In this document: in pieces, positions 605-15,423 of the stretch
Layout of the letters: every line of letters begins with the position of its first letter
Position numbering within the stretch: the first letter of the stretch is position 1
DNA from: Spirochaetales bacterium
Lineage (GTDB): Bacteria; Spirochaetota; Spirochaetia; JAIPGG01
Assembly (NCBI GenBank): GCA_021736255.1
Contig: JAIPGG010000004.1
Coordinates: 3,747 to 67,746 of the forward strand
Reading direction: 5' to 3'
DNA: 64,000 nucleotides
Translations under genes and position numbers: made by a program
The notes under the pieces: model-generated
What the model was told of the DNA's origin: nothing
What the model saw: only the letters and a program-made list of their open reading frames with translations
Database searches by the model: none

Positions 605-1996
605 ATGCCGGTTGAAAAAACTACATTAAGCAGTAGTGATCGCAACAGAGGCCAACGGTTCCTCCGGCGTTTCGTTACCCTGAATGGAATCTCCGTAGCC
701 TTTCTCATGAACGATCTGTTGATACTCTACGGAATCCGGAACGGGCTCGATGATCCGCAGGTTGCACTGCTTGCCTCGTTTATCCATCTGTCCATGCCCT
801 TCATGCTTTTCGGTATGTCCTGGATCCGCCGGGTCGGAGCTGCGCGCACTTGGGGATACGGGTGGCTCTTTCGTTACCTCTCGGGTTCTGTTCTCATTCT
901 CGCGCCTTGGATCGGCCGTTTCGCTCCCGAAACATTTGTCCACCTGGTCATTCTCCTCGGTGCATTCGGCTTTGCTGTTTTCCGAAGCATCGGGTTGGTA
1001 GCGAACTCTCCGCTTATCGGGGAGATAACCACCGAAGGCGAACGGGGCCGGTTCCTTTCGGGAAACTGGGTACGGGCAAATACGACCTATTTCTTTTCCA
1101 TGGCGCTGATAATCGCAATCATGTACTATTTCGATACAATGTGGGTGTACCAGCTGGTCATCGGAGCCGGTTGCGTAATCGGAATATTTGCCAGCCGGGT
1201 ATTGGTCCGGGTCCCGGAAACAGAAGGACCGGCCCGTTCCGCCTCAGAACCGATGGGAAGAGCCCTGAAAGAGATCCTTTCTTCCCCTCGTCTGCGCAGG
1301 ATTATTTTCGCCTGGGGCTCTTCCTTTGCAGCCTTTGTTTTGGTGATTCCCTTTGCCGTCGTTACGGTGAAAAACGGCTACGGCCTGTCGGATTACGCCG
1401 CACTGATCTTTTCACTGCTGGTTTTGGCCGGGGGAATTCTCTCTTCAGCGATAAATGCAGGGGTTTCCGACCACAGCGGGCCCCGGCCGCTTTTGATCCT
1501 CTACGTTACCGGTTTGATTCTGGTAGCGGGGTACTGGGCCTTTGCTCCATCGAGGTTTGCGCCCATACCTACCGCTGCGGCGTTTTTCACCGCGGGTTTC
1601 TGTAAGACCGGCATCATCCTGACCAACAGCCATTACCTGCTCTCAGCCGTCGAAGCCGGCCGGCGGGTGAGTATTTCTCTCTTTGCGCGAATGGCCGGGG
1701 GCGCTATGGCAGGACTCGCCGCTTCGGTCGGCGGCGGCACGCTTCTTCGAATTCTGAGAGAGACCACCTTCGGTAATGTGAGCTTGAATGGAATCGAGGT
1801 CTACCACTGGTATTTCAGGATTCTGGTCCCTGTTCTCCTCCTCCTTTTACTTGTCGTCATGCGGCTGGAGCGACTCAAAGAATGGGGAGTACGCCGGGTA
1901 ATTTCGTTTGTTTTCTCCCTTCAGGGCCTTCAGACAATGCTCATGCCCTCTCAGGACAGTGAAAAAGACGGGAACGAGGAGGACGATTCACGATGA
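605..1996 (+). CDS. MFS-type transporter (about 12 predicted TM helices, acidic C-terminal tail)
   Basis: The 463-aa product is hydrophobic throughout, with the periodic TM segments typical of the major facilitator superfamily. Its stop overlaps the next start (ATGA at 1993-1996). Confidence 0.75.
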   Translation: MPVEKTTLSSSDRNRGQRFLRRFVTLNGISVAFLMNDLLILYGIRNGLDDPQVALLASFIHLSMPFMLFGMSWIRRVGAARTWGYGWLFRYLSGSVLILAPWIGRFAPETFVHLVILLGAFGFAVFRSIGLVANSPLIGEITTEGERGRFLSGNWVRANTTYFFSMALIIAIMYYFDTMWVYQLVIGAGCVIGIFASRVLVRVPETEGPARSASEPMGRALKEILSSPRLRRIIFAWGSSFAAFVLVIPFAVVTVKNGYGLSDYAALIFSLLVLAGGILSSAINAGVSDHSGPRPLLILYVTGLILVAGYWAFAPSRFAPIPTAAAFFTAGFCKTGIILTNSHYLLSAVEAGRRVSISLFARMAGGAMAGLAASVGGGTLLRILRETTFGNVSLNGIEVYHWYFRILVPVLLLLLLVVMRLERLKEWGVRRVISFVFSLQGLQTMLMPSQDSEKDGNEEDDSR

Positions 1997-2364
1997 AAGG
2001 AGTGAAAGGAGTACCCATGCCGCCGCTCGTTTTGATCGCCTGCACGGTGGTGATTGCGAGCGCCGGCCAACTGGCAGCACGCGGCGGCGCGCTTCTTGCC
2101 GGTCAGGCCCCTCTGTGGCTGGTGAGTGTGCTGTTTCTTGGCAGCTACCTGGCTCTTGCCGGACGGGGAGTGCTCTGGCTCTTCGTATTACGCAAAATGC
2201 CCCTCTCCGTTGCCTATCCGCTGTATGCTGCTGTTTTTTTCTTGGTACCTGCTGGGGCGGCATGGCTTTATGATGAAGCGGTTAGTCTTCACTCTGCCGC
2301 AGGCTGGGCTTTGATCGGAGGAGGGGTCGTGTTGACCGGCATTCGTGCGGGGAAACAACGTTGA
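1993..2364 (+). CDS. small 4-TM DMT/EamA-like membrane protein (ArnE/ArnF-like flippase subunit candidate)
   Basis: The 123-aa product has four hydrophobic helices. It is paired with a second similar ORF and sits next to a GT2 gene, as in arnC-arnE-arnF arrangements. Confidence 0.6.
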   Translation: MKGVKGVPMPPLVLIACTVVIASAGQLAARGGALLAGQAPLWLVSVLFLGSYLALAGRGVLWLFVLRKMPLSVAYPLYAAVFFLVPAGAAWLYDEAVSLHSAAGWALIGGGVVLTGIRAGKQR

Positions 2365-2735
2365 TTGAAGCGGGTTTGTTGTCACAGTTGAGGCCTTATC
2401 TTTTTCTCTGCGGAATGCTGATCCTGGTGACCGCCGGGCAGATTCTCCTGAAGGCAGGGGCCCCGCGAATGGAAACGGGGCAGGGACTGAAGACCTTCGT
2501 TATCAGCCTTTTCCGCCCCCCTTTGGTTATCGGGGCCGGGCTCGTTTTTTCCGCTCCGGTGTTGTATTTTCTGGCCCTCCGGGACCTGTCCCTCGGACAA
2601 GCCTTTGCCGTCTCTGCCCTCTCGATTGTCCTCGTTCCCGCAGGCGCCCGAATCTTCCTGCAGGAGAGGATTACACCTTTACAGCTAGCAGCAATGATTA
2701 TGATTGCGGGAGGAGTAGTCCTTGCCAACCTCTGA
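2361..2735 (+). CDS. small 4-TM DMT/EamA-like membrane protein (ArnE/ArnF-like, second subunit)
   Basis: 124 aa with a TTG start that overlaps the previous stop. It has four hydrophobic helices and is a paralogous partner of 1993-2364. Confidence 0.6.
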   Translation: MIEAGLLSQLRPYLFLCGMLILVTAGQILLKAGAPRMETGQGLKTFVISLFRPPLVIGAGLVFSAPVLYFLALRDLSLGQAFAVSALSIVLVPAGARIFLQERITPLQLAAMIMIAGGVVLANL

Positions 2736-3585
2736 TCGTATCAAAGTCTCTCTGATCATCCCCACATTTCATCCTGCCGAATTTCACCCGGAAAGGGCAT
2801 TCCACGGGGAAGATGTTTCATCCGGCGGAGATCCATATTTGAATACAGAGGTGCACAACCCAATACAGACCCTCAGCAGGATGATCAGCAGCTGTGCAGA
2901 CAAGGAAAGAGAGATCATAATCTGTGATGACGGAAGCGGGGCAGAATATCAAACAGCCCTCCGCAATCTCTGCAGAAACCAGAGGGATACGGAAATCTTT
3001 TCTCCACTGAAAAGGAACCGACTTCGCTGTATCTTCATGGACCGGAACCGGGGACAGCAGATTGCCACGATAGCAGGTATGAGTGTTGCCCGGGGCAGCT
3101 GGATTATTACCATGGATGACGACGGTGAGCATCCGCCCGAATGCATTGAAGAATTGATAGCCCGCGGAGAGGAAGGAAACGACTTGGTCTATGCCGCGGT
3201 AAAGCAGCCGGAGAAAAGGAAAACAACCTGTATGCGCAGAACCGGCTCTGCTCTCAATCAATTTCTGTTTACCCGCTTTCTTGGCCTTCCAAAGGAGGTT
3301 CGGGTTTCGAGTTTCCGCGCAATACGGGCAACTTGGTTCCGGCAGACTTTTGAAAATCTGGAGAATCCCTTCCCCTACCTTTCGGCTATGCTCCTCCGGG
3401 AAGGCCCTCGGGTTTCCTCCATCCGGTATTCCGGAAAAGCTGCCTCGGCAAGCCGGTACAGCATTGCCTCTCTCGCGCTAATCTGGTGGAAGCTTTTCCG
3501 CTTCTGGGGCCCTCTCCGGTTTATTCCGTCCGAACGGCCGCATTTGACCGCCGATGATATTCGGTCTATGTACCGGGAGAAATAG
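2722..3585 (+). CDS. family-2 glycosyltransferase (polyprenyl-phosphate sugar synthase-like, ArnC/DPM1-like)
   Basis: N-terminal VSLIIPTF, then IIICDDGSG and ITMDDDGEHPP (the DxD region), which are typical GT-A/GT2 signatures. The gene overlaps its upstream neighbour. Confidence 0.8.
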   Translation: MPTSDRIKVSLIIPTFHPAEFHPERAFHGEDVSSGGDPYLNTEVHNPIQTLSRMISSCADKEREIIICDDGSGAEYQTALRNLCRNQRDTEIFSPLKRNRLRCIFMDRNRGQQIATIAGMSVARGSWIITMDDDGEHPPECIEELIARGEEGNDLVYAAVKQPEKRKTTCMRRTGSALNQFLFTRFLGLPKEVRVSSFRAIRATWFRQTFENLENPFPYLSAMLLREGPRVSSIRYSGKAASASRYSIASLALIWWKLFRFWGPLRFIPSERPHLTADDIRSMYREK

Positions 3586-3610
3586 AGTGAGGAAGAAGCT
3601 CCGTTCAATC

Positions 3611-4891
3611 ATGGTACTCGGCGGGGGCAGCAGCCAGATTCATCTGCTGCAAAGGGCCCTGAAGGCCGGGTTTTATGTGATTCTCGCAGATAAAGATCCC
3701 GATGCACCCGGAAGACGGTACTGCAGCGAATTCGTAGAGGCTTCCACCTTCGACATAGATGCGGTAACGCAGGCAGCCTCCCGGACCGGTGCCGAACGGA
3801 TTATTGCCGCCGGAAGCGATCAGCCGGTACTCACCGCTGCCGCAGCCTCGGCGGCCAACGGTCTGCCCTATCCCCTTTCTCCGGAAACCGCCCTTGCGGT
3901 AACGAACAAGCGAATAATGAAAACTATCTTTCACAAGGCTGATATTCCGACGGTCCGCTGGGCCCTTGCCGATGAAGATGGGAACCTGACGTTTGAACCG
4001 CAACAACAAGCAGAAAAGCCCCGCCCCCTCTTCGAGTCAACAGCCTCTCCTCTGGTGGTAAAACCGGTGGACAGCCAGGGACAGCGGGGTGTTCTGCTCG
4101 TCGACGACCGGAAGAAGATAAAGCAGGCAGCAAGCTACGTTCTCTCATACTCCCGGGAACCTGTTTTTTTGGTAGAGGAATATTATCCTTCGGGGGAAGT
4201 AACGGTTTCAGGCTGGGTGGAAAACGAAAAATGTAAAATCTATGCCGTAACCGACCGGGTAACCATCGATAATCCGCCGAGTCTGGGTGTTTGCACCGCC
4301 CACCGATATCCTTCCCGTTTTTTTCCTGAATTCAAGGAGGAGTTCGAAACGATCACCCGGCAGATAGTATCTTCCTTCGGCATCAGATCAGGCCCGATCT
4401 ATTTTCAGTACTTGATCGGGAAAGAGGGAATCAAGGTAAACGAGATAGCCTGCAGGCTCGGCGGAGCATACGAGGATGAATCTCTTCCGCGGGTCACCGG
4501 CATCGACATCATTGGAAAACTGCTGGGGGAAACGGAGGAAGCAGGCGGCGACAGGATAAGCCGAGAAAACAATACAAACCTGCACAAATATTTCTCTGTC
4601 CCTCTGATCTTCTGCAAACCCGGGCTGATACGTGAAATCCACGGAACCGGAGCAAGCCGGAAGATGAAAGGTGTTCACTCGCTATCCATTCTTCAAAAAC
4701 CGGGTACTCAAATAACCGATATGCAGAACTCCACCCAACGAGCGGCCTATGCCGTTATATCCGGTTTCACTGTCGGGGAGGTGAATAGGGCGGTCGATGA
4801 ATTATTCGATACCCTTCGGTTCTCCGATGAAAGGGGAAACGACCTATTGATAGACAGCCGGGATTCCTGCAAACTGAATCAGGATTTATGA
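3611..4891 (+). CDS. ATP-grasp domain carboxylate-amine ligase
   Basis: A pre-ATP-grasp Rossmann segment (IMVLGGGSSQIHLLQRALKAGFYVILADKD) is followed by an ATP-grasp body (PLVVKPVDSQGQRGV..., EEYYPSGEVTVSG, NEIACRLGG). The start is uncertain: ATG 3611, GTG 3587, or the ORF-track start 3554. Confidence 0.7.
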   Translation: MVLGGGSSQIHLLQRALKAGFYVILADKDPDAPGRRYCSEFVEASTFDIDAVTQAASRTGAERIIAAGSDQPVLTAAAASAANGLPYPLSPETALAVTNKRIMKTIFHKADIPTVRWALADEDGNLTFEPQQQAEKPRPLFESTASPLVVKPVDSQGQRGVLLVDDRKKIKQAASYVLSYSREPVFLVEEYYPSGEVTVSGWVENEKCKIYAVTDRVTIDNPPSLGVCTAHRYPSRFFPEFKEEFETITRQIVSSFGIRSGPIYFQYLIGKEGIKVNEIACRLGGAYEDESLPRVTGIDIIGKLLGETEEAGGDRISRENNTNLHKYFSVPLIFCKPGLIREIHGTGASRKMKGVHSLSILQKPGTQITDMQNSTQRAAYAVISGFTVGEVNRAVDELFDTLRFSDERGNDLLIDSRDSCKLNQDL

Positions 4892-5910
4892 TGGGAAAGC
4901 AGCAGAACCGGCAATATTTTTTTCTTATTATCGCCCTGGTATTGATCGCTCCGCTCGTTCTTGGCTTTCTCGGATGCGGTAGGGAATCTGATCCGCAAAC
5001 GCATTCTGCCGGCACGAAAAGCGGCAAACAGCCGGTTTTACGCATTGCAGAACAGTACGGACTGGCCTATGCCCCGCTTTCTGTTGCCAAGGCCCGGGGA
5101 CTCGTGCAAGCGGAGCTTCCCGGATGGCGAATCGAGTGGAAACAACTCGGGAATACAGCGGCTATTCGAGAGGCAATGATCGCAAAGGATCTCGATACTG
5201 GTTTCATGGGGATCCCCCCGTTCCTGATCGGCTGGGACCGGGGTATGAAATGGAAAATCTTTACCGGTCTTTCACAGGCCCCCCTCGGTCTTGTTACCTG
5301 GCGATCTGATATCCGCTCACTCGAAGACTTTGACCGAGACGACAGGATCGCACTCCCTCAACCCGGCAGCATCCAGCATATTCTCTTATCGATGGCAGCC
5401 GAACGGAGCCTCGGCGCCCCGAAGGCCTTCGATTCCAGGCTGGTAACACTCAACCACCCCAACGGCATGCAAGCATTGCTCGCCAGGCGGGATATTACCG
5501 CGCATTTCACCTCCCCCCCCTACCTGATGATGGAGCTTGCAACAGAAGATATGCACGAGGTGATTTCCGGACAGGAAGCAATGGGCGGTGAGTTTACGTT
5601 CATTGTCGGAACGGTAACCGATGAGTTTGCAGACAGAAATCCGGAAGCTGTGAAAGGTCTCGAACGAGCACTCGACAGGGCGATGACAATTTTGGCCGCC
5701 GGCGGAGGACGAAAGGAACTGGCCGCCGGCTTCAATCTCGAATTACCGGAGATCGAAAGCTATCTCGATCATCCCGATCTCGTCTATACCACAGAGGTTC
5801 AGGGGCTCGCTGAGTTTCTGGATTTTATGCTGCGACACAATTTTATCCGGAGAAAACCCGAAGAGAAAGAAGGAGTTTCCGGACTCTTGTGGGCTGGAGC
5901 CACGAAGTGA
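4888..5910 (+). CDS. ABC transporter substrate-binding lipoprotein, NMT1/SsuA/TauA-like (NitT/TauT family)
   Basis: A lipobox (LGFLGC) follows a hydrophobic signal, and the fold resembles periplasmic aliphatic-sulfonate/taurine/nitrate binders. The start overlaps the ATP-grasp stop (ATGA). Confidence 0.7.
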   Translation: MMGKQQNRQYFFLIIALVLIAPLVLGFLGCGRESDPQTHSAGTKSGKQPVLRIAEQYGLAYAPLSVAKARGLVQAELPGWRIEWKQLGNTAAIREAMIAKDLDTGFMGIPPFLIGWDRGMKWKIFTGLSQAPLGLVTWRSDIRSLEDFDRDDRIALPQPGSIQHILLSMAAERSLGAPKAFDSRLVTLNHPNGMQALLARRDITAHFTSPPYLMMELATEDMHEVISGQEAMGGEFTFIVGTVTDEFADRNPEAVKGLERALDRAMTILAAGGGRKELAAGFNLELPEIESYLDHPDLVYTTEVQGLAEFLDFMLRHNFIRRKPEEKEGVSGLLWAGATK

Positions 5911-6704
5911 CCCCCTCCAAGCGCCTTCTGCATGGAAGAAACAGAATAGTACGAAGGCTGATTTGGGTTGTCGTAATAATTGCCGGTTATGAAATAATAC
6001 GCCGGGGTCTGGAGATCTCTCCGCTCGCACTGCCCCCGATCGTGGAGATAGGAAGCGCCTTTTTTGCCGGTTTTGGAGAAGGAGACCTGCTCCAACAGCT
6101 TGTCCGGTCCTTGATTTTGATCGCAGCGGCCCTCGCTGCAGGAGCTGGGGCCGCCCTTGGTCTGGCCCTGCTCAGTGTTCGCCGTTCCTTTTTTGCCGAG
6201 CTCATCGACGGCCTGGTGGCCATATTCCATCCTCTTCCCGGCATCGCTCTTCTGCCCATTGTCATCCTCTGGTTCGGCACGGGTACCGCCTCTCTGCTGG
6301 TAATCATTATTCATTCCGTCCTCTGGCCGATGATAACGAACCTTACCGCCGGTTTGCGGGGAGTCTCTCCGACCCAAATCATGGCAGGAAAGAACCTCGG
6401 CATGGGCCGTTCCGAACTCTTTTTCCGAATCCTTCTGCCCGCTTCCTTGCCCTATATTATAGCGGGAATGCGGATTGCCTGGGCCCGAAGCTGGAGAGCC
6501 CTTATTAGTGCAGAGATGGTCTTCGGAGCTATCGCAGGGGCCGGAGGAATCGGCTGGTATCTTTATTCGAAGCGGGTCTTCATGGACTCGGCCGGACTGT
6601 TTGCCGGTGTTGTTCTTATTATTCTGATCGGGGTACTGGTAGAGGATGTGGTCTTCCGCCGGATTCAGAGGAAAACGGTAGAACGGTGGGGAATGGAACG
6701 CTGA
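5889..6704 (+). CDS. ABC transporter permease (NitT/TauT family)
   Basis: Six TM segments and an EAA-like loop region (ARSWRALISAEMV), in the context of the neighbouring SBP and ATPase genes. Confidence 0.8.
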   Translation: MGWSHEVTPSKRLLHGRNRIVRRLIWVVVIIAGYEIIRRGLEISPLALPPIVEIGSAFFAGFGEGDLLQQLVRSLILIAAALAAGAGAALGLALLSVRRSFFAELIDGLVAIFHPLPGIALLPIVILWFGTGTASLLVIIIHSVLWPMITNLTAGLRGVSPTQIMAGKNLGMGRSELFFRILLPASLPYIIAGMRIAWARSWRALISAEMVFGAIAGAGGIGWYLYSKRVFMDSAGLFAGVVLIILIGVLVEDVVFRRIQRKTVERWGMER

Positions 6705-7471
6705 TGGAAGAACGGATAATTTTCTCCGCCGAGAGAATTGTAAAATACTACCAGAATGGCGAAACAGGGGTACCCGTTTTATCGAATATTTCATTGAAGC
6801 TGAAGGAGAGAGAATTCGTCTGCATTCTCGGGCCCTCAGGCTGCGGGAAATCGACACTGCTACGGGTTCTTTCCTCCCTCGAAAAGGCCGATTCTGGAAC
6901 TATCGCTCTCGACGGGAACGAGATTACAGGTCCCGGCCCCGATCGAATGCTCATCTTTCAGGAGCAGGACCAGCTCTTCCACTGGCTGAGCACACGTTCG
7001 AATATTCATTTGGCCCTTGGCAAAACAGGCACTCAGAGCGAGCAAGAGCGTGAAAAACAAACCACAGCACTCCTTCGTCAATTCGGATTACAGGAAGCAG
7101 GAGACAAGTTTCCTCATCAGCTTTCCGGCGGAATGAAACAGCGGGCTGCCATCGCCAGGTCACTGGCAGCCGGTCCCCGAATTCTTTTTCTTGATGAACC
7201 GTTTTCCAGTCTCGACGCGATGACCCGAGAACACCTCCAGATATTTCTCCTCGACCTCTGGAAAAGGAGGAATCTTACACTGCTTTTTGTAACCCATGAT
7301 ATTACCGAGGCAGCTCTTCTTTCGGACCGGATAATTATTATGAATGCTGAGGGTAAGCTCGTAAAAGAAGTCGAGAATACACTCAGCCGCCCCCGGGACC
7401 GGGACGGAACAGACCTTCACAAATTCACTGCCGTTCTCCGGCAGGAGCTTTCCCATAATCCCGGTCTTTGA
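6704..7471 (+). CDS. ABC transporter ATP-binding protein (NitT/TauT family)
   Basis: Walker [10 protein letters not shown], signature LSGGMKQR, Walker B LFLDEP. ATG 6704 overlaps the permease stop (TGATG); the alternative GTG start is at 6686. Confidence 0.85.
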   Translation: MEERIIFSAERIVKYYQNGETGVPVLSNISLKLKEREFVCILGPSGCGKSTLLRVLSSLEKADSGTIALDGNEITGPGPDRMLIFQEQDQLFHWLSTRSNIHLALGKTGTQSEQEREKQTTALLRQFGLQEAGDKFPHQLSGGMKQRAAIARSLAAGPRILFLDEPFSSLDAMTREHLQIFLLDLWKRRNLTLLFVTHDITEAALLSDRIIIMNAEGKLVKEVENTLSRPRDRDGTDLHKFTAVLRQELSHNPGL

Positions 7472-9098
7472 TCCGGTAGACAGTTACCGCCCATTCTTTC
7501 CTGTCCTGATAAAGCACAAGCCGCATCCCGTAAACAGGATTCACTATCTCTGCAATTTTTTCACCCTGCTCATCGAGGATATCTTTCAACCGGGGATACC
7601 ACGGCGCGATATTTCCATAGACTGTGTTCCAGACCGGCCGGCTGCGGTAGATTAACTCGAGTTCCTCGGGAAGTAGTATATATTCAACCCTCTCCTGAGC
7701 TAAAAACCTTCCTATCCCCGGGAAATCCGGTCCGCTGAGATCCCGAAAAACCCTGAGTTTCCCATGGTCGAAAGCAAAGGCGGTATTCAAGTTTGCAAGC
7801 ACAGTCGCATCGCCGGGCACATGTCTTTGAATAGCTTCGATATAATCAGCATACCGGGACTTGCGCCAGGGCAGCACTGTATCCGCTGTGTTCCACAAGA
7901 GAAATCCGAAGACTCCTGTCAGGACAAGGATGCCGGCGAGCCTTACAGCCTTACTGAATTGTAAACTGACTTTCCCATATCCTTTTGCTGCCTCCACAAT
8001 AAAAGACAAGAAAACAATAAAACCAAGATAACCGAGGGGGAACAGAAACAATATGCTCGGGGGTGAATATTTTCCAATCAGGAAATATCCAACAGCAACA
8101 AGAGGCAAGCCTGCAAGCAGCCATCCGAATATATCTTTTCCGGAGTTTTGTTTTTTGCGTATGAAGAGGAGACCCACCGTTCCTATCCACGAAACGAGAA
8201 AAAGGCGCAGCTGAAATCCAACCGGCGGTAAAAAGTAGGTTCCGGCAATCTGTCCGTCAATCTTCCGAAAAAAAGAAAAGAACCTGGATAGTCGAGTCAC
8301 CGGATGATCAGTCACCCCTACTTCCCTTCCGAATTCCAGATAATTGTAAAGAAAGTCCGGGTCCATGATGAAGCTTACGGCAACTGCCGATGCAGCACAT
8401 ACAGCCAATCCCAAAATCAGTATACCTGCAGCAGGGAGGGGTCCGATGGTCCTGCTTTTGCTCTTTTTCCTCGAAAGAAGAAACCACAGAAAAAAGGGAA
8501 AGGGAAGTGCGATAATAAAACTGTTTGGATGAATGAAAACCCCGGCGCCGAGAATAAGCGATAAAAGAAAACTGTCGCGAACTCGCCAATCCCTACTTTG
8601 AACCGTCACATACCAAATACCGGCACACATAAGCAGAACCATAAAAATTTCCTGCCTTCCGATATGAGATGCGGTAATAAACTGAATATCTACAGATAGC
8701 AGGATGGCGGGAATCATCCCCGCTGCAACACTTCCAAAGCGGGAAGTAAAAAGACGCCGCCCGGCATCAGCGAGAAACAGCAGGGATGCAAACCCTGCTC
8801 CAAGAGAGGGAACCCTTGCAGCAACGGCAGACCAATCAACCGCTATAAAGGGCATTTGAAAGAGATGAAAAAGGATTTTTATCGCATGCGGCATGCGGGG
8901 TGTACTGTGGAAAAAGTCCTCGGTGGCCGCAAGGGAACCGGATTCAATCATGGACCTGGTCAGTGATGCAAGCCAGGCCTCGTCGGAATGGACAAAGGGG
9001 AAGAAAGGCAAAGACCAGATGTGGAACAAGAGGTAGGCTGCTATGGCTGCTGCGGCAGCGGCGACGCCGAGCAGTTTTCTGTTCACTCCTTTCCTCAC
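7425..9098 (-). CDS. GT-C fold membrane glycosyltransferase (ArnT/PMT-like, GT39/GT83-like)
   Basis: 557 aa with more than 10 TM helices. An acidic DE motif sits after TM1 (FVHSDEAWLA) and there is a soluble C-terminal domain of about 150 aa. GTG start. The 3' end overlaps the convergent ABC ATPase gene by 47 nt. Confidence 0.7.
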   Translation of the reverse strand: MRKGVNRKLLGVAAAAAAIAAYLLFHIWSLPFFPFVHSDEAWLASLTRSMIESGSLAATEDFFHSTPRMPHAIKILFHLFQMPFIAVDWSAVAARVPSLGAGFASLLFLADAGRRLFTSRFGSVAAGMIPAILLSVDIQFITASHIGRQEIFMVLLMCAGIWYVTVQSRDWRVRDSFLLSLILGAGVFIHPNSFIIALPFPFFLWFLLSRKKSKSRTIGPLPAAGILILGLAVCAASAVAVSFIMDPDFLYNYLEFGREVGVTDHPVTRLSRFFSFFRKIDGQIAGTYFLPPVGFQLRLFLVSWIGTVGLLFIRKKQNSGKDIFGWLLAGLPLVAVGYFLIGKYSPPSILFLFPLGYLGFIVFLSFIVEAAKGYGKVSLQFSKAVRLAGILVLTGVFGFLLWNTADTVLPWRKSRYADYIEAIQRHVPGDATVLANLNTAFAFDHGKLRVFRDLSGPDFPGIGRFLAQERVEYILLPEELELIYRSRPVWNTVYGNIAPWYPRLKDILDEQGEKIAEIVNPVYGMRLVLYQDRKEWAVTVYRIKDRDYGKAPAGERQ

Positions 9099-9151: not shown

Positions 9152-9190
9152 AAAAAAGCCCCCGACGCCGCAGCGCCGGGGACTTTTCTT
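9152..9190 (-). terminator. Rho-independent terminator of the sulfur operon
   Basis: On the minus strand, stem CCCCGGCG / CGTCGGGG (one G-U pair) has a 6-nt loop and is followed by GCTTTTTT. It lies 17 nt after the rhodanese stop. Confidence 0.6.
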
Positions 9191-9206: not shown

Positions 9207-10148
9207 TTACTGCACAACAGGGTATCCTTCGGTTACCCAGCCCATGGGCTCGTTCTTCGGTGTTCCCATACCGCCTTTGAGAGAGGCGGCATCATAACCG
9301 ATGACCTTCAGGATGGCCACAGTCTGCCCGGCAGTCTGTCCGCTGTAGCAATTTACTATGAGCTTCTTGTCTGCGGGAAGGCTTCCGAACATCTCGTGCA
9401 TATCGGCCCCGTAGGGAATGTTGACGGCCGTTTCGATATGCCCCTGGTCGTAGTCTTCTTTTCGGCGGATATCGACGAACTGCACCGAATCATCTTCTGC
9501 ATCGAGGATCTTCTTTGCGTTCTCTGAACTAATGATGTTGTTTGCAAAGGGAGTTCCGGCAAGTTCTTCGAATTCCTTATAATAGGCGTCTACCGTTTCC
9601 TGTACGGCCGGAGCGATCTCATTGTTTGCAGAGGGTACGGCTACCTCGGTAGTATCGATAAACTCATCTGCGCCTTCTACCTTGGAAAAACCGTAGTTGA
9701 ACCCGTACCGCACGGACTTGACGGGGATTCCGGCAAGGTTCAAGAGCGCCACCGTCTGCCCGGCGGTCTGCCCGCTGTAGCAGTAGAGATAGACCTGTCC
9801 GCTCTGGGGAATAGATGCCAGGTACTGTGCAAAATCCGGGCCCCAGGGCATGTTTACCGCTCCGGTAACATGTGCCTCTGCATAGGCATCGGGTTGACGG
9901 ATATCAATAACGAACATATCCTCGCCGTTTTGCAGCTTCTCGAGGAGCATCTCCTCCTTGATAATGTAGCCGCCCTGAGGGTATTCGTCGAAGTAGTCCT
10001 TTGCGAGTTCAGTTACATCAACAGCCGGTTCAGCAGCTTCCTGGGCCTGCTGTTCTCCCTGCGCACCTTCCTGCTGCCCCTTCGCGGTTACGGTCGCCGC
10101 GGAAAGTACCAGCAGAAGCACCAATAGAATGGGAAAGAGCTTTTTCAT
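9207..10148 (-). CDS. exported tandem-rhodanese sulfurtransferase
   Basis: Start reassigned to MKKLFPILLVLLLVLSAATVTA (signal peptide, RBS GGAGGAAG). There are two rhodanese domains, each with an active-site loop CYSGQTAGQT. Confidence 0.8.
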   Translation of the reverse strand: MKKLFPILLVLLLVLSAATVTAKGQQEGAQGEQQAQEAAEPAVDVTELAKDYFDEYPQGGYIIKEEMLLEKLQNGEDMFVIDIRQPDAYAEAHVTGAVNMPWGPDFAQYLASIPQSGQVYLYCYSGQTAGQTVALLNLAGIPVKSVRYGFNYGFSKVEGADEFIDTTEVAVPSANNEIAPAVQETVDAYYKEFEELAGTPFANNIISSENAKKILDAEDDSVQFVDIRRKEDYDQGHIETAVNIPYGADMHEMFGSLPADKKLIVNCYSGQTAGQTVAILKVIGYDAASLKGGMGTPKNEPMGWVTEGYPVVQ

Positions 10149-10233
10149 TGCTTCCTCCGAAAATTTCTTGTATTTATCTACTCCATCCGCCGGGCAAACT
10201 GCTCCGGTACGGATGGAGGTCCTGCACACTGTT

Positions 10234-11133
10234 TTATGAATTGTCCGCTGCTTCCAGTTCGAGAACCTCCGGGTCGGGCACATAAACCGGATTCATCGGG
10301 TTCGCGCTCCATTCAACCCACGCGCCGTCGTAAAGCTTCAGGTCCCGGTAACCGGCATTGTAGAGCGCCAGATACGTCTGGGCCCCGCGGATCGAAGTTT
10401 TGCAAAACATGATCACGGTATCGTCGAAATCGATGTCTTCTTCGAGGTAGCGAATTCTGATCTGCTGTACCGGTTTGTAGGTTCCGTCCTGGAAATTATT
10501 GCCGGTGAAATTCAAAAGAATCGATCCGGGGATGGTTCCCTCTTTGTATTCTTCTTCCGTCCGCGTATCGACAATACAGGTATTCTCGTCCGGGGTGTCG
10601 AGATGGTCTCGAATGTCTTCAGTAGTGGCTATCATTTCATCACGCCGAGGACCGGGTTCGAAAACAGCCGGCTGAACCGATGGCTTATCAGTGGTGATCT
10701 TTGCCCCCTCTTGCTTCATTGCAGCCAGGCCGCCGCTTACAACCTTTACCTGATCGTGTCCGTAGACCTTGAGGGTCCACCACAAACGGGCCGAATCCAT
10801 ATTTTTGTTGTTATCGTAAACAACAACCTGGGTATCATTGCTGATCCCCCGGCTTCCCATGACCTCGGCAATCTGCTCGGGCGGAGCCAAGAGGTTGGGA
10901 TACGGATCATTTACGACTATGTCTGCCCGGGCAATCGATACGGCTCCTGCAACATGTTCCTTCCGATAATCCAGAAGGTTCTGAGCATCCACAAGAAGGG
11001 CCCCTTCGCTTACGAGAGTTTGTGCCTCGGCGGCAGTAATTACCTCGGTATCTTGTTCACCGGCCGGCGGTGTCCCGCAGGCGAGAAGCGGAAGAACTAA
11101 AACCGCCACAACGGCTAACAGCTTGATCTTCAT
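10234..11133 (-). CDS. thiosulfate sulfurtransferase-like rhodanese lipoprotein (two-domain, SseA/TST-like)
   Basis: Lipoprotein signal MKIKLLAVVAVLVLPLLAC. It has an inactive N-terminal and a catalytic C-terminal rhodanese domain with loop CKTSIRG. Confidence 0.8.
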   Translation of the reverse strand: MKIKLLAVVAVLVLPLLACGTPPAGEQDTEVITAAEAQTLVSEGALLVDAQNLLDYRKEHVAGAVSIARADIVVNDPYPNLLAPPEQIAEVMGSRGISNDTQVVVYDNNKNMDSARLWWTLKVYGHDQVKVVSGGLAAMKQEGAKITTDKPSVQPAVFEPGPRRDEMIATTEDIRDHLDTPDENTCIVDTRTEEEYKEGTIPGSILLNFTGNNFQDGTYKPVQQIRIRYLEEDIDFDDTVIMFCKTSIRGAQTYLALYNAGYRDLKLYDGAWVEWSANPMNPVYVPDPEVLELEAADNS

Positions 11134-11160
11134 ATATCCTCCAGTTCCTAAATAATGCCG

Positions 11161-12414
11161 TTATACCGAAACCGGCTCGGCAACATATTTGTTCAGGGCT
11201 TCATAGATATGGGGCTTATCGCACTGGGTGGAAGTCTCAACCACTTCTCCCTCCTTGGTATAGAAGATGGTCATTGGTTCCACATCACAGGCAAGCCGGT
11301 CACAAAGGGATTTCCCCTTGTACTGATCGATGACATTCACTTTAACCTGACCGTCATATTCTTCTTCGATCTCCCGCAGCATAGGAAGCAGCTCTCGGCT
11401 CGGTGCATCGATAGCCGAGTACACGTAAATCAGACCTATCTTTTCCTTCTGCATGATCTGGTTTTTAAAGAGCTCGGTTTCCGAAATATGTTTTTCAGCT
11501 TCTACCCCGGCGATTGCACCGTCACCAACGGCGGTTGCAACCTGCTTGAGTTCTTTTTCTCGCACATCCCCGCATGCATAGACTCCGGCGATTCCTGTTT
11601 CCATCTTTTCATTGGTAATGACATATCCCTGCTTGCTGAGAGAAAGTTTGTCTTTGAATATCTCGGTGTTCGGTACATAGCCGATGAACTCGAAACAGGT
11701 ATCCACGTCGATGGGTATAATCTCTCCGGTCTTCAGGTTCTTGAGGTTCACCCGCTCGAGCTGCTCATCGCCTTCGAAGGAGTCGACTACTGTGTTCCAT
11801 ACGAACTCCATCTTCGGATTGTCGAGGGCCTGATCGCGTGAGATCTCGTTGCAGTCCATTTTCCCCTCATCGTGGATGACCGATACGATGACCTTCTTGG
11901 CAAACTTGCTTAGAAACATCCCTTCTTCAATAGCTGCATCCCCGGAACCAATAACCATAACGGTCTTGTCGGTATTTGCCGCAGCATCACAGGTAGCACA
12001 AAAAGATATACCCTTGTCGAAAAGGTATTTCTCCTCGTTCTCGGCACCTGTCGTCCTCGGTCTTCCGCCTGAGGCAACAATCACCGTCTTGGCTTCGAAA
12101 ATATTCCGAAAGGTTTCGACCTTCTTTACTTCGCCGTCGAGTTCGACATTCTTGACATCGGTAAGTTTGAACTTTACACCGAAGTTTTTTGCCTGTTTCT
12201 GGAAGAGCTCCATCAGGCCGAGACCGGTATTTCCCTCCGGAAAGCCGGGGTAATTCATGATCTCGTTCGTGTAGGTGGCTAACCCGCCGACCAGAGACTT
12301 TTCGATAAGCAGGGTTTTCAACTGCGCCCTGCCGCAGTATATTCCTGCAGTCATTCCACCGGCGCCTCCGCCGATTATGACCACATCATATTGTTCTACC
12401 TTCTTTTCTCGCAT
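11161..12414 (-). CDS. thioredoxin-reductase-like flavoprotein fused to a C-terminal thioredoxin-fold domain
   Basis: FAD site VVIIGGGAGG, redox-active CATCD, and second dinucleotide site VIGSGDAAIEE. HDEGKMDC stands where TrxR has HRRDxxRA. The roughly 100-aa C-terminal Trx-like fold has no CxxC. Confidence 0.8.
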   Translation of the reverse strand: MREKKVEQYDVVIIGGGAGGMTAGIYCGRAQLKTLLIEKSLVGGLATYTNEIMNYPGFPEGNTGLGLMELFQKQAKNFGVKFKLTDVKNVELDGEVKKVETFRNIFEAKTVIVASGGRPRTTGAENEEKYLFDKGISFCATCDAAANTDKTVMVIGSGDAAIEEGMFLSKFAKKVIVSVIHDEGKMDCNEISRDQALDNPKMEFVWNTVVDSFEGDEQLERVNLKNLKTGEIIPIDVDTCFEFIGYVPNTEIFKDKLSLSKQGYVITNEKMETGIAGVYACGDVREKELKQVATAVGDGAIAGVEAEKHISETELFKNQIMQKEKIGLIYVYSAIDAPSRELLPMLREIEEEYDGQVKVNVIDQYKGKSLCDRLACDVEPMTIFYTKEGEVVETSTQCDKPHIYEALNKYVAEPVSV

Positions 12415-12438
12415 ATGATCTCCTCTTTTCGGATAAGG

Positions 12439-12984
12439 CTACATAAAGTATTTAACCAGCATCTTGCTGCCGACTACGGCTCCGAAAAACATGGCCAATC
12501 CGAAGACCCAACCGGACAGGGAAAATGAAGCAATACCGGAAAAAAGAGCACCGATATTACACCCGAACCCGATGCGGGCCCCGTAGCCCATAAAAATACC
12601 TCCGAGAATCGCCGCAACAACCTGCCGCCAGGATTTGATTTTCTTGATCTTGAATCCGGAGGCTATAAGAGCGGCAAACAGAGCTCCGACAATAATGCCG
12701 ATATTCCGCCAGCTTCCCGGATCCCGAACAAACCCGCCGTCTATCGTAGTCCAAGCAGACTCTCGGGCAAAGTAATACCATTTATCCACCGAACCGCCGA
12801 GAGATTCGAATATCCAGGCACCCCAGTTGGCAAACACCGCAGAGACTCCCCACGGATTCCGGGTTACAGCAATGGTGAGAATCTGAAATACCGACAGCAA
12901 TATTGCAGCAGTCAGATAGGGCCAGGCATCCTTGAGCCAAAGCTTGTAATATTCGTTTTTCTTGACATTATCGAAGAATTTCAT
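12439..12984 (-). CDS. YeeE/YedE family sulfur-compound transporter, C-terminal half
   Basis: 181 aa and polytopic, with the conserved GFGCNIGALF motif. Confidence 0.8.
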   Translation of the reverse strand: MKFFDNVKKNEYYKLWLKDAWPYLTAAILLSVFQILTIAVTRNPWGVSAVFANWGAWIFESLGGSVDKWYYFARESAWTTIDGGFVRDPGSWRNIGIIVGALFAALIASGFKIKKIKSWRQVVAAILGGIFMGYGARIGFGCNIGALFSGIASFSLSGWVFGLAMFFGAVVGSKMLVKYFM

Positions 12985-12993
12985 ATTGATCCC

Positions 12994-13221
12994 CTACTTT
13001 GTCTTTTCGATGATGACTTCCCATTCACCATCGTCAATCTCTTCGATTTCTACGTTGTGTCCCTCGGTGCGGGCCCATTCGGGAACATTCTTCATTGCAC
13101 AGCTGTGATCGAGCTGAACAATCAGTACATCGCCAACCTCCAGTTCTTCGAGTTTCTTCTGTGCTTTTACCAGAGGAACCGGACAGGCTTCACCGTAACA
13201 ATCTAATTCGACTTCCTTCAT
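12994..13221 (-). CDS. TusA/YeeD-like sulfur carrier protein (copy 1, 75 aa)
   Basis: CPxP-type motif DCYGEACPVPLVKAQKKL. Start reassigned to MKEVELD (RBS AGGAG). The ORF-track N-terminal extension overlaps copy 2. Confidence 0.85.
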   Translation of the reverse strand: MKEVELDCYGEACPVPLVKAQKKLEELEVGDVLIVQLDHSCAMKNVPEWARTEGHNVEIEEIDDGEWEVIIEKTK

Positions 13222-13235
13222 AGCTGTGCTCCTTT

Positions 13236-13463
13236 CTATTTCGTTTTCTCTATGATGACTTCCCATTCACCGTCGTCGATCTCTTCGATCTCGACATTGT
13301 GGCCCTCGGTGCGGGCCCATTCGGGAACATTCTTCATCGCACAACTGTGATCGAGCTGAACGATCAGCACATCACCCACTTCCAGTTCTTCGAGTTTTTT
13401 CTGTGCCTTAACCAGGGGGACCGGACAGGCTTCACCGTAACAATCTAATTCGACTTCCTTCAT
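13236..13463 (-). CDS. TusA/YeeD-like sulfur carrier protein (copy 2, 75 aa, protein identical to copy 1)
   Basis: Same 75-aa sequence as copy 1. RBS GAGGTG. Confidence 0.85.
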   Translation of the reverse strand: MKEVELDCYGEACPVPLVKAQKKLEELEVGDVLIVQLDHSCAMKNVPEWARTEGHNVEIEEIDDGEWEVIIEKTK

Positions 13464-13483
13464 CGTATATCACCTCTTCTTGT

Positions 13484-14215
13484 TTAATGTTCTGCGCCGG
13501 CAGCTGCTGCCTGTTTTCTTTTGGCAAACTTATCCGCGGCAATCCACAGGAACACAATGATCAATAAATGAACAATAAGTGCTCCGATCCAACCAAATAT
13601 ATCCGGTAGAAAGACCTCATCTCCCTTGAGAATTACATTCAGTTTCCACCATCCAAAATGGTACGCTCCGAGCAGTGAACCAACGATGAAGAAGACGAGG
13701 GAAAGAACCTGCATCATAAATCCCTCACCTACCCGCATCAGTGTTCCCGAAGCACATCCGCCGGATATGACCATACCGATACCGAAAATAAATCCTCCGA
13801 CTATAGTCGCCAGACTTATCGGTACAACAAAACCCATACCGGGAATTGGAAGTCCCTGGGTAAAAGCCCCGTACTTGATTGCCCAGAAACCAATACCGGT
13901 AACCGCAAAAGCAACGAGTACGGCTTTTGAAAGATTGGTTCCTCCGGTCAGGTACGGATCCCTCATTGCAGCCGTAAAACAAAACCGGCCGCGCTGGAGA
14001 ATAAACCCGAATCCGATACCCGTGAGCCAAAAGAACGTTAAATTCTCCGACAACCCGCTCAAGACGATCCCGACAATAACGATGCCGATGAAAACGAGAA
14101 TCCCCAGAGGGATCTGGTTCGTTTTCTTCTTCCGGGAACGGGACCGTGAAGAACTCCTGCGGATTGTTGATCCGCCGGATGATGCCGGGGCCGCAGCATT
14201 CGTATCTTCGCCCAT
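13484..14215 (-). CDS. YeeE/YedE family sulfur-compound transporter, N-terminal part with Ser/Arg-rich cytoplasmic tail
   Basis: Motifs RGRFCFTAAMRD and SGGCASGTLMR. The N-terminal 40 aa are low complexity (SSSRSRSRKKK). RBS GGAGG. Confidence 0.8.
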   Translation of the reverse strand: MGEDTNAAAPASSGGSTIRRSSSRSRSRKKKTNQIPLGILVFIGIVIVGIVLSGLSENLTFFWLTGIGFGFILQRGRFCFTAAMRDPYLTGGTNLSKAVLVAFAVTGIGFWAIKYGAFTQGLPIPGMGFVVPISLATIVGGFIFGIGMVISGGCASGTLMRVGEGFMMQVLSLVFFIVGSLLGAYHFGWWKLNVILKGDEVFLPDIFGWIGALIVHLLIIVFLWIAADKFAKRKQAAAAGAEH

Positions 14216-14263
14216 GCACTAACCTCCGTTTTTTTCTTTCTTCTTTCTAAATCGAAAGAGTTC

Positions 14264-14316
14264 TATAGATATATATAGATATATTCTTATATAAAACTAT
14301 GCAAAATCTATATATA
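14264..14316. promoter_or_regulatory. AT-rich repeat cluster (candidate operator/promoter of the sulfur operon)
   Basis: Tandem TATAGATATA x2 at 14264-14283. An 11-bp inverted repeat, TATATATAGAT (14270-14280) and ATCTATATATA (14306-14316), also lies here. The cluster is 50-100 bp upstream of the yeeE-N start. Confidence 0.35.
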
Positions 14317-14478
14317 AGTTTTCATAAGCAAAGTCGTCATGTTTTGTGTGTAAACGATAGTAGTATGATTTCTGTGAGCGGTCAAGTAAGAATCGCTAAA
14401 AAATTATTAAATCAAATTTTATAATATAGTGTTTTTTATATTTCGTGAAAAACTATCAGAAGGATAAAAGATGGAATC

Positions 14479-14507
14479 TTGACTCACCCGGACACTTCTT
14501 CTAATGT
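14479..14507 (+). promoter_or_regulatory. candidate sigma-70 promoter
   Basis: TTGACT, 17 nt, TAATGT, followed 13 nt later by GAGGAG and then ATG 14527. Confidence 0.45.
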
Positions 14508-14526
14508 ATCCTTCGAGGAGAAAGCT

Positions 14527-15423
14527 ATGAAACAAAAAATGATAATGGGAGCTGCCGGGACAGCGGCAGCCTTTTTTCTACTGATAGCCGGTTCATGTGC
14601 CACCAGTGAACCCGCCGCCCCTTCCGATTCCGAAAAACAACATCCAAAACAGCAGCAAGCTGAGAAAGAACGAGAACCCGAGAAGGTAATCGAGACAGAG
14701 TACCTTGTTGCCCGTCAAGGCTCGTACTTCTCAGACGGCGTTCTCGATGAGTATATTGAATATACCTACGCCGATGAAGGCACCCTGCTGCTCAAAAGCG
14801 AACGCTATAATGCTTCAGATCAGTTACAGGAAACCATTCGGAACACCTATGAAAACGGTCTTCTTGTGCGAAGAGAAAGCATTGGCCCCTCCGGAGAACT
14901 GATTTCGTATCATCTTATTTCCTACGACGATGAGGGGAACCTGCTCAGTGACGGGACATATAATGCCGAGGAAGAGCTCCAAACTCTATCCGAATATGAA
15001 TATGATCAAGATGGAAACCGAATTCGTTGGAATATCTATGACGGAAACCGCTCTCTTCTCACTTATACAACCTATGAATACGAGGACGGGCTGAACAGTC
15101 GGATCATGAGCTACAGCCCCGGCGGCAGATTGGAAGAGTATTTCATTAATGAATACAACACAGAAGGAAAAATGACTGCCGCTGCCCATTATAACTCTGA
15201 AGATGAACTCCTTCAGACCCGAGAATACACATATAACAGTGAAGGGTCTCTGAGCGAACTACAGGTACTCCGCCCAAACGGAACTACTATCCGATCAGTC
15301 GAATACACCTACGATGAAGCAGGCAACCCGGTAGTTATCCGTTATCTTCGGGCCGGTAACGACCTTCGGGAAGAAGTGCGCCGTGAATATATAACACGTA
15401 ATGTAGAGCGTGTTGTCGAGTAG
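14527..15423 (+). CDS. YD-repeat-like lipoprotein
   Basis: Start reassigned to MKQKMIMG (RBS GAGGAG), with lipobox LIAGSC. Repeated Y-x-Y-D/E-x-x-G-N/R-like units are visible (YEYDQDGNRIRW, YTYDEAGNPVVI, YTYNSEGSL). Confidence 0.65.
   Translation: MKQKMIMGAAGTAAAFFLLIAGSCATSEPAAPSDSEKQHPKQQQAEKEREPEKVIETEYLVARQGSYFSDGVLDEYIEYTYADEGTLLLKSERYNASDQLQETIRNTYENGLLVRRESIGPSGELISYHLISYDDEGNLLSDGTYNAEEELQTLSEYEYDQDGNRIRWNIYDGNRSLLTYTTYEYEDGLNSRIMSYSPGGRLEEYFINEYNTEGKMTAAAHYNSEDELLQTREYTYNSEGSLSELQVLRPNGTTIRSVEYTYDEAGNPVVIRYLRAGNDLREEVRREYITRNVERVVE

Follow-up and report, generated by a model that had tools for sequence, protein, structure and literature searches.

We analysed a 64,000-nucleotide (nt) stretch of contig JAIPGG010000004.1 from a Spirochaetales bacterium (the window, whose numbering is used for all positions) and found in it a split channel of the YeeE/YedE family encoded together with TusA-type carriers and a thioredoxin reductase (TrxR)-like flavoprotein, an arrangement that recurs across phyla. 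Seven minus-strand genes, running from 14215 to 9207, encode in order the two-Cys half of the channel (P1), two copies of a TusA/YeeD-like carrier, the one-Cys half of the channel (P4), the flavoprotein (P5), and two rhodaneses with predicted export signals (P6 and P7). An earlier description made from the letters of the DNA (the sequence-only reading) had presented these genes as a sulfur-trafficking operon. All seven open reading frames (ORFs) exist at the positions it gave, their spacing is as tight as claimed (gaps of 20, 14, 9, 24, 27 and 85 nt from P1 to P7), every motif it quoted was found (RFCFTAAMRD, GGCASGTLMR, GFGCNIGALF, CKTSIRG, and CYSGQTAGQT twice), and the profiles Sulf_transp, TusA, Pyr_redox_2 and Rhodanese all matched the expected genes. 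We propose, as the reading we are somewhat inclined to accept, that the system imports sulfane sulfur or thiosulfate through a cysteine relay onto TusA, and that P5, probably driven by NADH, would then release sulfide.

Conservation of gene order is one line of support for this proposal. We scanned one genome per GTDB species, which gave at least 315 species-level relatives of P5, and retrieved 80 loci; counts of gene order take in only the loci with enough flanking sequence, which came from Spirochaetota, Bacillota and Chloroflexota. P1, one to three TusA copies, P4 and P5 followed one another on a single strand in all 39 Spirochaetota loci and all 30 other loci (69 of 69), and the core proteins were 60-78% identical across phyla, which together argue for a single functional unit. 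The sequence-only reading had staked its proposal on conservation of the gene set as a unit in related genomes. This largely holds within the Spirochaetota, where 30 of the 38 loci had P6 and P7 directly after the core, but not beyond them (0 of 27 loci), and the more widely conserved unit is the four-gene core. As far as gene order tells, the rhodaneses are a lineage-specific attachment to that core: Sediminispirochaeta-like loci had none, and in some Bacillota the rhodanese genes were placed elsewhere, at a distance of up to 10 kb. The Bacillota and Chloroflexota loci also carry a LysR-type regulator divergent from P1 (e.g. L056 6219-7337). In Bacillota this regulator scored 196 bits on the selenium-metabolism LysR model (LysR_Sec_metab, cut-off 250), with the next family at 121, and a second, distant tusA-like gene (approximately 30-37% identity) lies beyond it. 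No regulator gene was recognised beside the Spirochaetota clusters.

P1 (243 aa, 13484..14215, minus strand) matched positions 1-161 of the Pfam Sulf_transp profile (E=8e-31), and P4 (181 aa, 12439..12984, minus strand) matched positions 164-310 (E=2e-33). Against the solved YeeE of Spirochaeta thermophila (StYeeE, PDB 6LEO), P1 aligned to residues 7-129, with the cysteines of RFCFTAAMRD and GGCASGTLMR corresponding to C22 and C91, and P4 aligned to residues 187-319, with the cysteine of GFGCNIGALF corresponding to C293. In P1 numbering, C79 was conserved in 97% and C154 in 100% of 64 orthologues, and C142 of P4 was conserved in all 63. The YeeE-like channel is thus divided between two ORFs with all three Cys motifs retained, as had been suggested. 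The split itself is real but has precedents, since the PmpAB/YedE1E2 proteins and an archaeal split YedE have been described (PMC11582611, PMC10812762, PMC5322559). PmpAB/YedE1E2 of Proteobacteria likewise consist of two neighbouring half-size YeeE-family proteins, presumed to form a heterodimer, with Cys-dependent function (PMC10812762, PMC11582611). Their halves, however, each have four helices, a single Cys and a length of approximately 130-140 aa, compared with the 243 and 181 aa and two plus one Cys found here, and they have no tusA between the halves, no reductase, and occur in other phyla.

The affinities of the two halves within the superfamily were mixed. On the NF033796 profile (selen_YedE_FdhT, cut-off 350) P1 scored 103.7 bits (model positions 179-383) and P4 scored 102.7 bits (model positions 3-159), while on the TsuA models NF041049 and NF052577 (cut-offs 645 and 400) P1 scored 79.8 and 72.6 bits and P4 scored 19.7 and 49.1 bits. 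In pairwise comparison with the E. coli proteins, P1 was about equally similar to the C-terminal half of YedE (97 bits) and the N-terminal half of TsuA (89 bits), whereas P4 matched the N-terminal half of YedE over its full length (98 bits) and the C-terminal half of TsuA over its final 79 residues only (45 bits). An exhaustive search with P4 recovered split relatives as well as fused relatives of approximately 400 aa in both half-orders; the nearest fused relatives scored 150-202 bits on NF033796, their best profile, and none reached a curated cut-off. Because all scores lie below every cut-off, P1 and P4 represent a clade of the YeeE/YedE superfamily outside the curated families. E. coli YedE (L082 1278-2483) is a circular permutation of YeeE/TsuA (L083 3468-4526), with the one-Cys half N-terminal in YedE and C-terminal in TsuA, and the occurrence of fused P4 relatives in both orders shows that the halves behave as shuffleable modules. 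The split, permuted and either-order fused forms should therefore be useful for following how this channel fold evolved. In one long-read metagenome-assembled genome the P1 orthologue (L040 8365-9022) was observed as two overlapping pieces in different frames, probably from a frameshift or assembly error.

Residues 1-38 of P1 (window 14100-14215) form a basic tail rich in Ser, Arg and Lys, SSGGSTIRRSSSRSRSRKKKTNQIP, which is predicted to be cytoplasmic. The sequence-only reading had singled out a Ser/Arg-rich tail as an oddity of this protein; the tail is present, but it is conserved family-wide rather than peculiar to this genome, with the motif SIRRSS..R.RKKKKNQ[IL]P found in P1 orthologues of every phylum sampled. 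Judging by these alignments, the conserved basic tail is a newly recognised hallmark of the family. Its calculated charge is opposite to that of the carrier (pI 11.8 for the tail, 4.4 for TusA).

Between the channel halves lie the two tusA/yeeD genes that had been reported there, at 13236..13463 (copy 1) and 12994..13221 (copy 2), both on the minus strand. Each encodes the same acidic protein of 75 aa (Pfam TusA PF01206, E=6e-25 for copy 1), with Cys13 in a CPVP sequence (the CPxP motif), a second conserved cysteine at position 41, and an extra one at position 8. With E. coli TsuB/YeeD the protein shares 34% identity and aligns at both conserved cysteines (59 bits), and it scored 40 bits against YedF; on the TsuB/YeeD model it reached 50.9 bits, below the curated cut-off of 147.5. 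The proteins of the two copies are 100% identical and the DNA is 89.9% identical, with all 23 differences in 228 positions falling at third codon positions and synonymous. Tandem tusA genes were also observed in 11 other loci, and Wukongibacter has three copies. Individual pairs differed by 0-23 synonymous and 0-3 non-synonymous changes, and the pooled paralogue pairs by approximately 100 synonymous and 9 non-synonymous changes (omega approximately 0.02), which points to strong selection on both copies. We could rule out an assembly artefact as the source of the duplication, since the copies differ at 23 sites and tandems recur in 11 genomes. We likewise ruled out a special mechanism keeping the two proteins identical: only about two non-synonymous changes would be expected (probability of none approximately 0.13), and the identity can be put down to strong purifying selection. 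Over their first 44 nt the two window copies do not differ, all 23 differences lying further downstream; either partial gene conversion or a constraint at the start of translation could account for this. The tusA repeat is also exactly where an independent short-read assembly from this sample breaks.

P5 (417 aa, 11161..12414, minus strand) is a low-Mr TrxR-like flavoprotein with a match to Pyr_redox_2 (E=7e-43) and a weak match to Thioredoxin. The description of this protein as a cytoplasmic but atypical TrxR-like reductase proved apt, as it combines a TrxR fold and a CATC centre with an altered NADPH motif and a thioredoxin (Trx) domain lacking CxxC. Its best match in the PDB was the TrxR 2q7v (265 bits), and its AlphaFold2 model (pLDDT 77) likewise predicts a TrxR fold. 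FFTR- and DDOR-type flavoenzymes were ruled out as its nearest kin (95 and 159 bits, compared with 265 for the canonical TrxR). Like low-Mr TrxR in general, P5 has two Rossmann domains for FAD and NAD(P)H and a CATC redox centre, which is invariant in its orthologues, and it is 42-50% identical to the D. radiodurans TrxR; on TIGR01292 it scored 311.8 bits, below the cut-off of 343.45. The segment HDEGKMDC aligns to HRRDTLRA of 2q7v, and this acidic substitute for HRRxxxR is invariant in the family. The replacement by Asp/Glu of the arginines that bind the 2'-phosphate of NADPH suggests that NADH is used, and NADH is probably the electron donor of P5. The C-terminal domain aligns to thioredoxins, with IDAPS in place of WCGPC across the whole family, and carries an invariant CxxxxC (C371/C376) near the cis-Pro loop. 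P5 thus shares a C-terminal Trx-fold fusion with NTRC-type TrxR-Trx proteins but lacks their WCGPC, and it differs from both NTRC and low-Mr TrxR in that its gene always comes after those of the split channel. The protein is 65-85% identical across Spirochaetia, Clostridia, Halanaerobiales and Anaerolineae. By these alignments, the acidic NADPH-motif substitute and the C-terminal Trx fold without CxxC are newly recognised hallmarks of the P5 family.

The export signals ascribed to the two rhodaneses can be read in the sequence, in P6 as a predicted lipobox (LLAC) and in P7 as a signal-peptide-like N-terminus, and both proteins are putatively extracytoplasmic. P6 (299 aa, 10234..11133, minus strand) is a predicted lipoprotein with two rhodanese domains (PF00581, E=2.5e-32). 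Its catalytic Cys244 lies in the CKTSIRG loop and its N-terminal domain is without a catalytic Cys; among 33 orthologues the lipobox C19 was conserved in 97% and C244 in 100%. P7 (313 aa, 9207..10148, minus strand) is a predicted exported protein, also with two rhodanese domains (PF00581, E=2e-27), each having its catalytic Cys in CYSGQTAGQT. These cysteines, C168 and C312 in the numbering of the longest ORF, were conserved in all 30 orthologues. The start of P7 is most likely at 10148 (MKKLF...) and not at the longest-ORF start of 10283, because a separate gene prediction also arrives at 313 aa and the orthologues are conserved from this point on. The best small-protein matches of P7 were PspE and GlpE. 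The periplasmic rhodaneses Sud (Wolinella) and PspE (E. coli) also hold the catalytic Cys in a six-residue loop and are exported, as P6 and P7 are predicted to be; P6 and P7 differ from them in their tandem two-domain structure, in the predicted lipid anchor of P6, and in that their genes accompany an importer and not a respiratory polysulfide reductase.

Among the closest known systems is YeeE/TsuA-YeeD/TsuB (E. coli; S. thermophila 6LEO, 8J4C). It has in common with the core the Sulf_transp fold with three essential Cys positions, the order of the two-Cys and one-Cys halves, and an adjacent TusA-family protein that has both CPxP and YeeD's second cysteine. In contrast, YeeE/TsuA is a single polypeptide of approximately 330-350 aa with a central helix, where we observed two genes placed around tusA in every testable locus; the system described here adds the basic P1 tail, and its scores fall far below the TsuA and TsuB cut-offs. 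Furthermore, a TrxR-like reductase always follows the channel and carrier genes here, and none has been reported at YeeE-YeeD loci. Uptake by YeeE requires YeeD, which binds YeeE and uses its CPxP Cys to decompose thiosulfate (PMC11073785), and split YeeE-family pairs import zero-valent sulfur through conserved cysteines (PMC10812762). The sequence-only reading knew of no described system coupling such uptake to a dedicated reductase and periplasmic sulfurtransferases in one operon; in agreement, we found no paper on a YeeE-linked thioredoxin reductase or on such a coupling within the literature collection searched.

Under the sulfur-import proposal, which builds on the YeeE-YeeD model, the membrane-anchored P6 and the soluble P7 would capture the sulfane sulfur of thiosulfate or polysulfide in the form of Cys-persulfides and hand it to the outer mouth of a P1/P4 heterodimer. 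The sulfur species would pass along the three channel cysteines to the cytoplasmic side and be accepted there by the acidic TusA, which the basic P1 tail may hold nearby. TusA would then bear a thiosulfonate or persulfide, as has been described for YeeD (PMC11073785). With NADH, P5 would reduce the TusA-bound sulfur via its CATC centre, its Trx-fold domain without canonical redox cysteines possibly serving as the docking module for TusA. This step would release H2S, together with sulfite if thiosulfate were the substrate, and would regenerate TusA. If these anaerobes have no small thiols such as glutathione, as we assume, P5 would stand in for the reducing power that such thiols give other cells. 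The extra tusA copies would fit a carrier that acts stoichiometrically and at high flux, and the rhodaneses would be optional extracytoplasmic collectors. The sulfide could enter assimilation or, in fermenters, the pathway could be a route for disposing of NADH electrons. Where YeeE-YeeD accounts for thiosulfate crossing the membrane, P5 is a concrete and testable candidate for reducing the carrier-bound sulfur, and a system containing it could be a fermentative electron sink yielding sulfide in sediments, soda lakes, oil fields and guts.

The seven genes are not the whole of the conserved neighbourhood. Clustering of all ORFs of the retrieved loci revealed larger conserved surroundings that the sequence-only reading had missed; their coordinates were converted to the window as 13091 minus the L001 coordinate. 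Directly beyond P7 lies a 557-aa membrane glycosyltransferase of the GT-C type (Pfam PMT_2; 7425..9098, minus strand), probably on a separate transcript. Its cluster was present in 38 loci and adjoins the two rhodanese genes in Spirochaetota as well as in Bacillota, and the Vallitalea orthologue matched PF02366 (PMT). Convergent with this gene is a plus-strand block at 1993..7471, identified by gene calls, Pfam and NCBIfam, which encodes in order a small EamA pair (ArnE/F-like), a GT2 glycosyltransferase (ArnC/PgfS-like), an ATP-grasp ligase (LAL_C2), an SsuA-like binding protein, an ABC permease and an ABC ATPase. This glycosylation block, differently arranged, accompanies the core in Spirochaetota as well as in Bacillota/Chloroflexota (e.g. 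L086 1-8400 and many of the loci L007-L081), and the Bacillota version adds RmlA/B-like enzymes and a WecE-like transaminase. The complete genome of Vallitalea guaymasensis contains every part, including two rhodaneses beside the PMT-like gene. Recent transfer of a single island is not favoured as the cause of the linkage, because the block is only 30-43% identical between phyla where the core is 60-78% identical.

Several observations weigh against the import of sulfur as we have drawn it. Both channel halves score higher on the YedE/FdhT profile than on TsuA, and the Bacillota regulator is nearest to a selenium-metabolism LysR family. The case for NADH comes from a single motif, the role given to the Trx-like domain is a guess since canonical redox cysteines are missing from it, and the rhodaneses cannot be obligatory because many loci are without them. 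The model also leaves the conserved link with the glycosylation block unexplained, and every step for the P1-TusA-P4-P5 family is a proposal. Of the sulfur capture, import and reduction put forward by the sequence-only reading, the components, the channel cysteines and the carrier are supported, but the substrate is less secure, as channel and regulator lean towards selenium-associated families.

These profile affinities and the regulator make selenium import a serious rival, one that we nevertheless regard as unlikely. The split channel would then take selenite or another selenium species, TusA would carry a selenotrisulfide or perselenide on its two cysteines, P5 would deliver selenide for selenophosphate synthetase, and the rhodaneses would capture scarce selenium outside the cell. 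The host lineages are anaerobes of a kind that often uses selenoproteins, and thioredoxin reductase systems and rhodanese are able to handle selenite and selenium, both of which we counted in its favour. NF033796 was the best profile for P1, P4 and their closest fused relatives, the full-length match of P4 to the YedE half compares with only 79 residues for TsuA, and in Bacillota the regulator is nearest LysR_Sec_metab and the extra TusA nearest the N-terminal domain of YedF. Moreover, no dedicated selenium transporter has been proven in any organism (PMC11097638), and if the substrate were selenium the system would be a complete candidate route for its uptake and reduction. The putative selenium system YedE/FdhT-YedF accordingly shares with the one described here its best curated profile for both halves, a TusA-like partner and, in Bacillota, a related LysR regulator. 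However, P1 and P4 remain far below the NF033796 cut-off (approximately 104 and 103 compared with 350 bits). The two-Cys half comes first here, following YeeE/TsuA, opposite to YedE where the one-Cys half is first, and the window TusA is closer to YeeD than to YedF and has none of the YedF-type DsrE domains. YedE proper often adjoins selD or selenocysteine (Sec) genes (PMC5322559). No such genes were found nearby here: a tblastn search with E. coli SelD gave no selD match in the 64-kb window or, within 10 kb of the core, in 81 loci (approximately 1.3 Mb). Finally, two to three carrier copies and two rhodaneses suggest a flux on the scale of a macronutrient rather than a trace element.

A broader reading, to which we would assign a still lower probability than to selenium, starts from the glycosylation block. 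Here the seven genes would be the compact spirochaetal form of a cross-phylum system of approximately 15 genes, in which the rhodaneses cooperate with the GT-C glycosyltransferase, a lipid-linked aminosugar pathway (DegT/WecE-like transaminase, ArnC/PgfS-like GT2 and ArnE/F-like flippase), the ATP-grasp ligase and the SsuA-like ABC importer. Possible roles would be glycosylation of the rhodaneses, or synthesis of an extracytoplasmic glycoconjugate able to mobilise sulfur in insoluble or polymeric form, followed by passage through the split channel to TusA and reduction by the flavoprotein.

Two further alternatives seem to us quite improbable. The first is a module for sulfane-sulfur stress, detoxification or signalling, in which reactive sulfur would be imported and reduced under control, much as in the Firmicutes cst and CoA-persulfide-reductase operons. 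Operons responding to reactive sulfur species do contain rhodaneses, TusA and a pyridine-nucleotide disulfide reductase, a parts list like the present one, and the Bacillota loci have a dedicated regulator. Expression of YedE1E2 also alters the cellular pool of sulfane sulfur and oxidative stress (PMC10812762). It would nonetheless be unparsimonious for a cell to bring in a toxic species only to detoxify it, and no persulfide dioxygenase, sulfide:quinone reductase (SQR) or CstR/ArsR-type sensor was present among the conserved neighbour clusters. The hosts, in addition, inhabit sulfidic habitats where sulfide is abundant, which we counted against such a module. The second alternative, for which we hold out just as little hope, is that the TusA persulfide feeds the adjacent aminosugar/PMT-like glycosylation and ATP-grasp pathway (e.g. 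for a sulfur-bearing surface glycoconjugate) with P5 recycling the carrier: the block of glycosylation, ABC and ATP-grasp genes does travel with the core in Spirochaetota and Bacillota/Chloroflexota, though at only 30-43% identity, and the extra tusA of Bacillota is divergent from it, but in roughly half of the loci the block is missing from the surrounding 10 kb, Sediminispirochaeta-like genomes carry the core without it, and no sulfur-inserting enzyme (radical SAM, ThiI/MnmA-like or sulfotransferase) occurred among the conserved clusters.

The flanks of the seven genes were examined for transcription signals. The upstream intergenic region (14216..14480, no strand assigned), 5' of P1, is AT-rich as had been noted (G+C fraction 0.33 at 14200-14599) and contains a promoter match and TA-rich palindromes. 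The former is a sigma-70-like candidate, TTGACC-17-TACTAT, on the minus strand at 14385..14357; the latter are inverted repeats with perfect 11-nt arms at 14270-14280 and 14306-14316, which are weak evidence for an operator because the sequence is of low complexity. No riboswitch or other known RNA was found with Rfam at E<=1 in 14100-14600, and at the gathering threshold the whole 64-kb window gave only a tRNA gene (49-120). Downstream of P7, the terminator expected at approximately 9152-9190 is present as a minus-strand intrinsic terminator (9152..9190), a G+C-rich hairpin (GUCCCCGGCGC/GCGUCGGGGGC) followed by UUUUUU. A simple pattern scan alone overlooked it, and it was revealed by folding against shuffled sequences, in which the 108-nt spacer after P7 gave -56.6 kcal/mol (z=-5.5). 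The promoter-like site, the spacing and the terminator support a compact operon-like organisation of the seven genes.

The Sediminispirochaeta-like loci have neighbours of their own. In five of them, genes that by eye resemble those for an encapsulin-type shell protein and a ferritin-like partner follow P5 on the opposite strand. These and the other neighbours of that type (sucrose-phosphate synthase-like and others), which were likewise assigned by eye only, were judged unrelated to the core.

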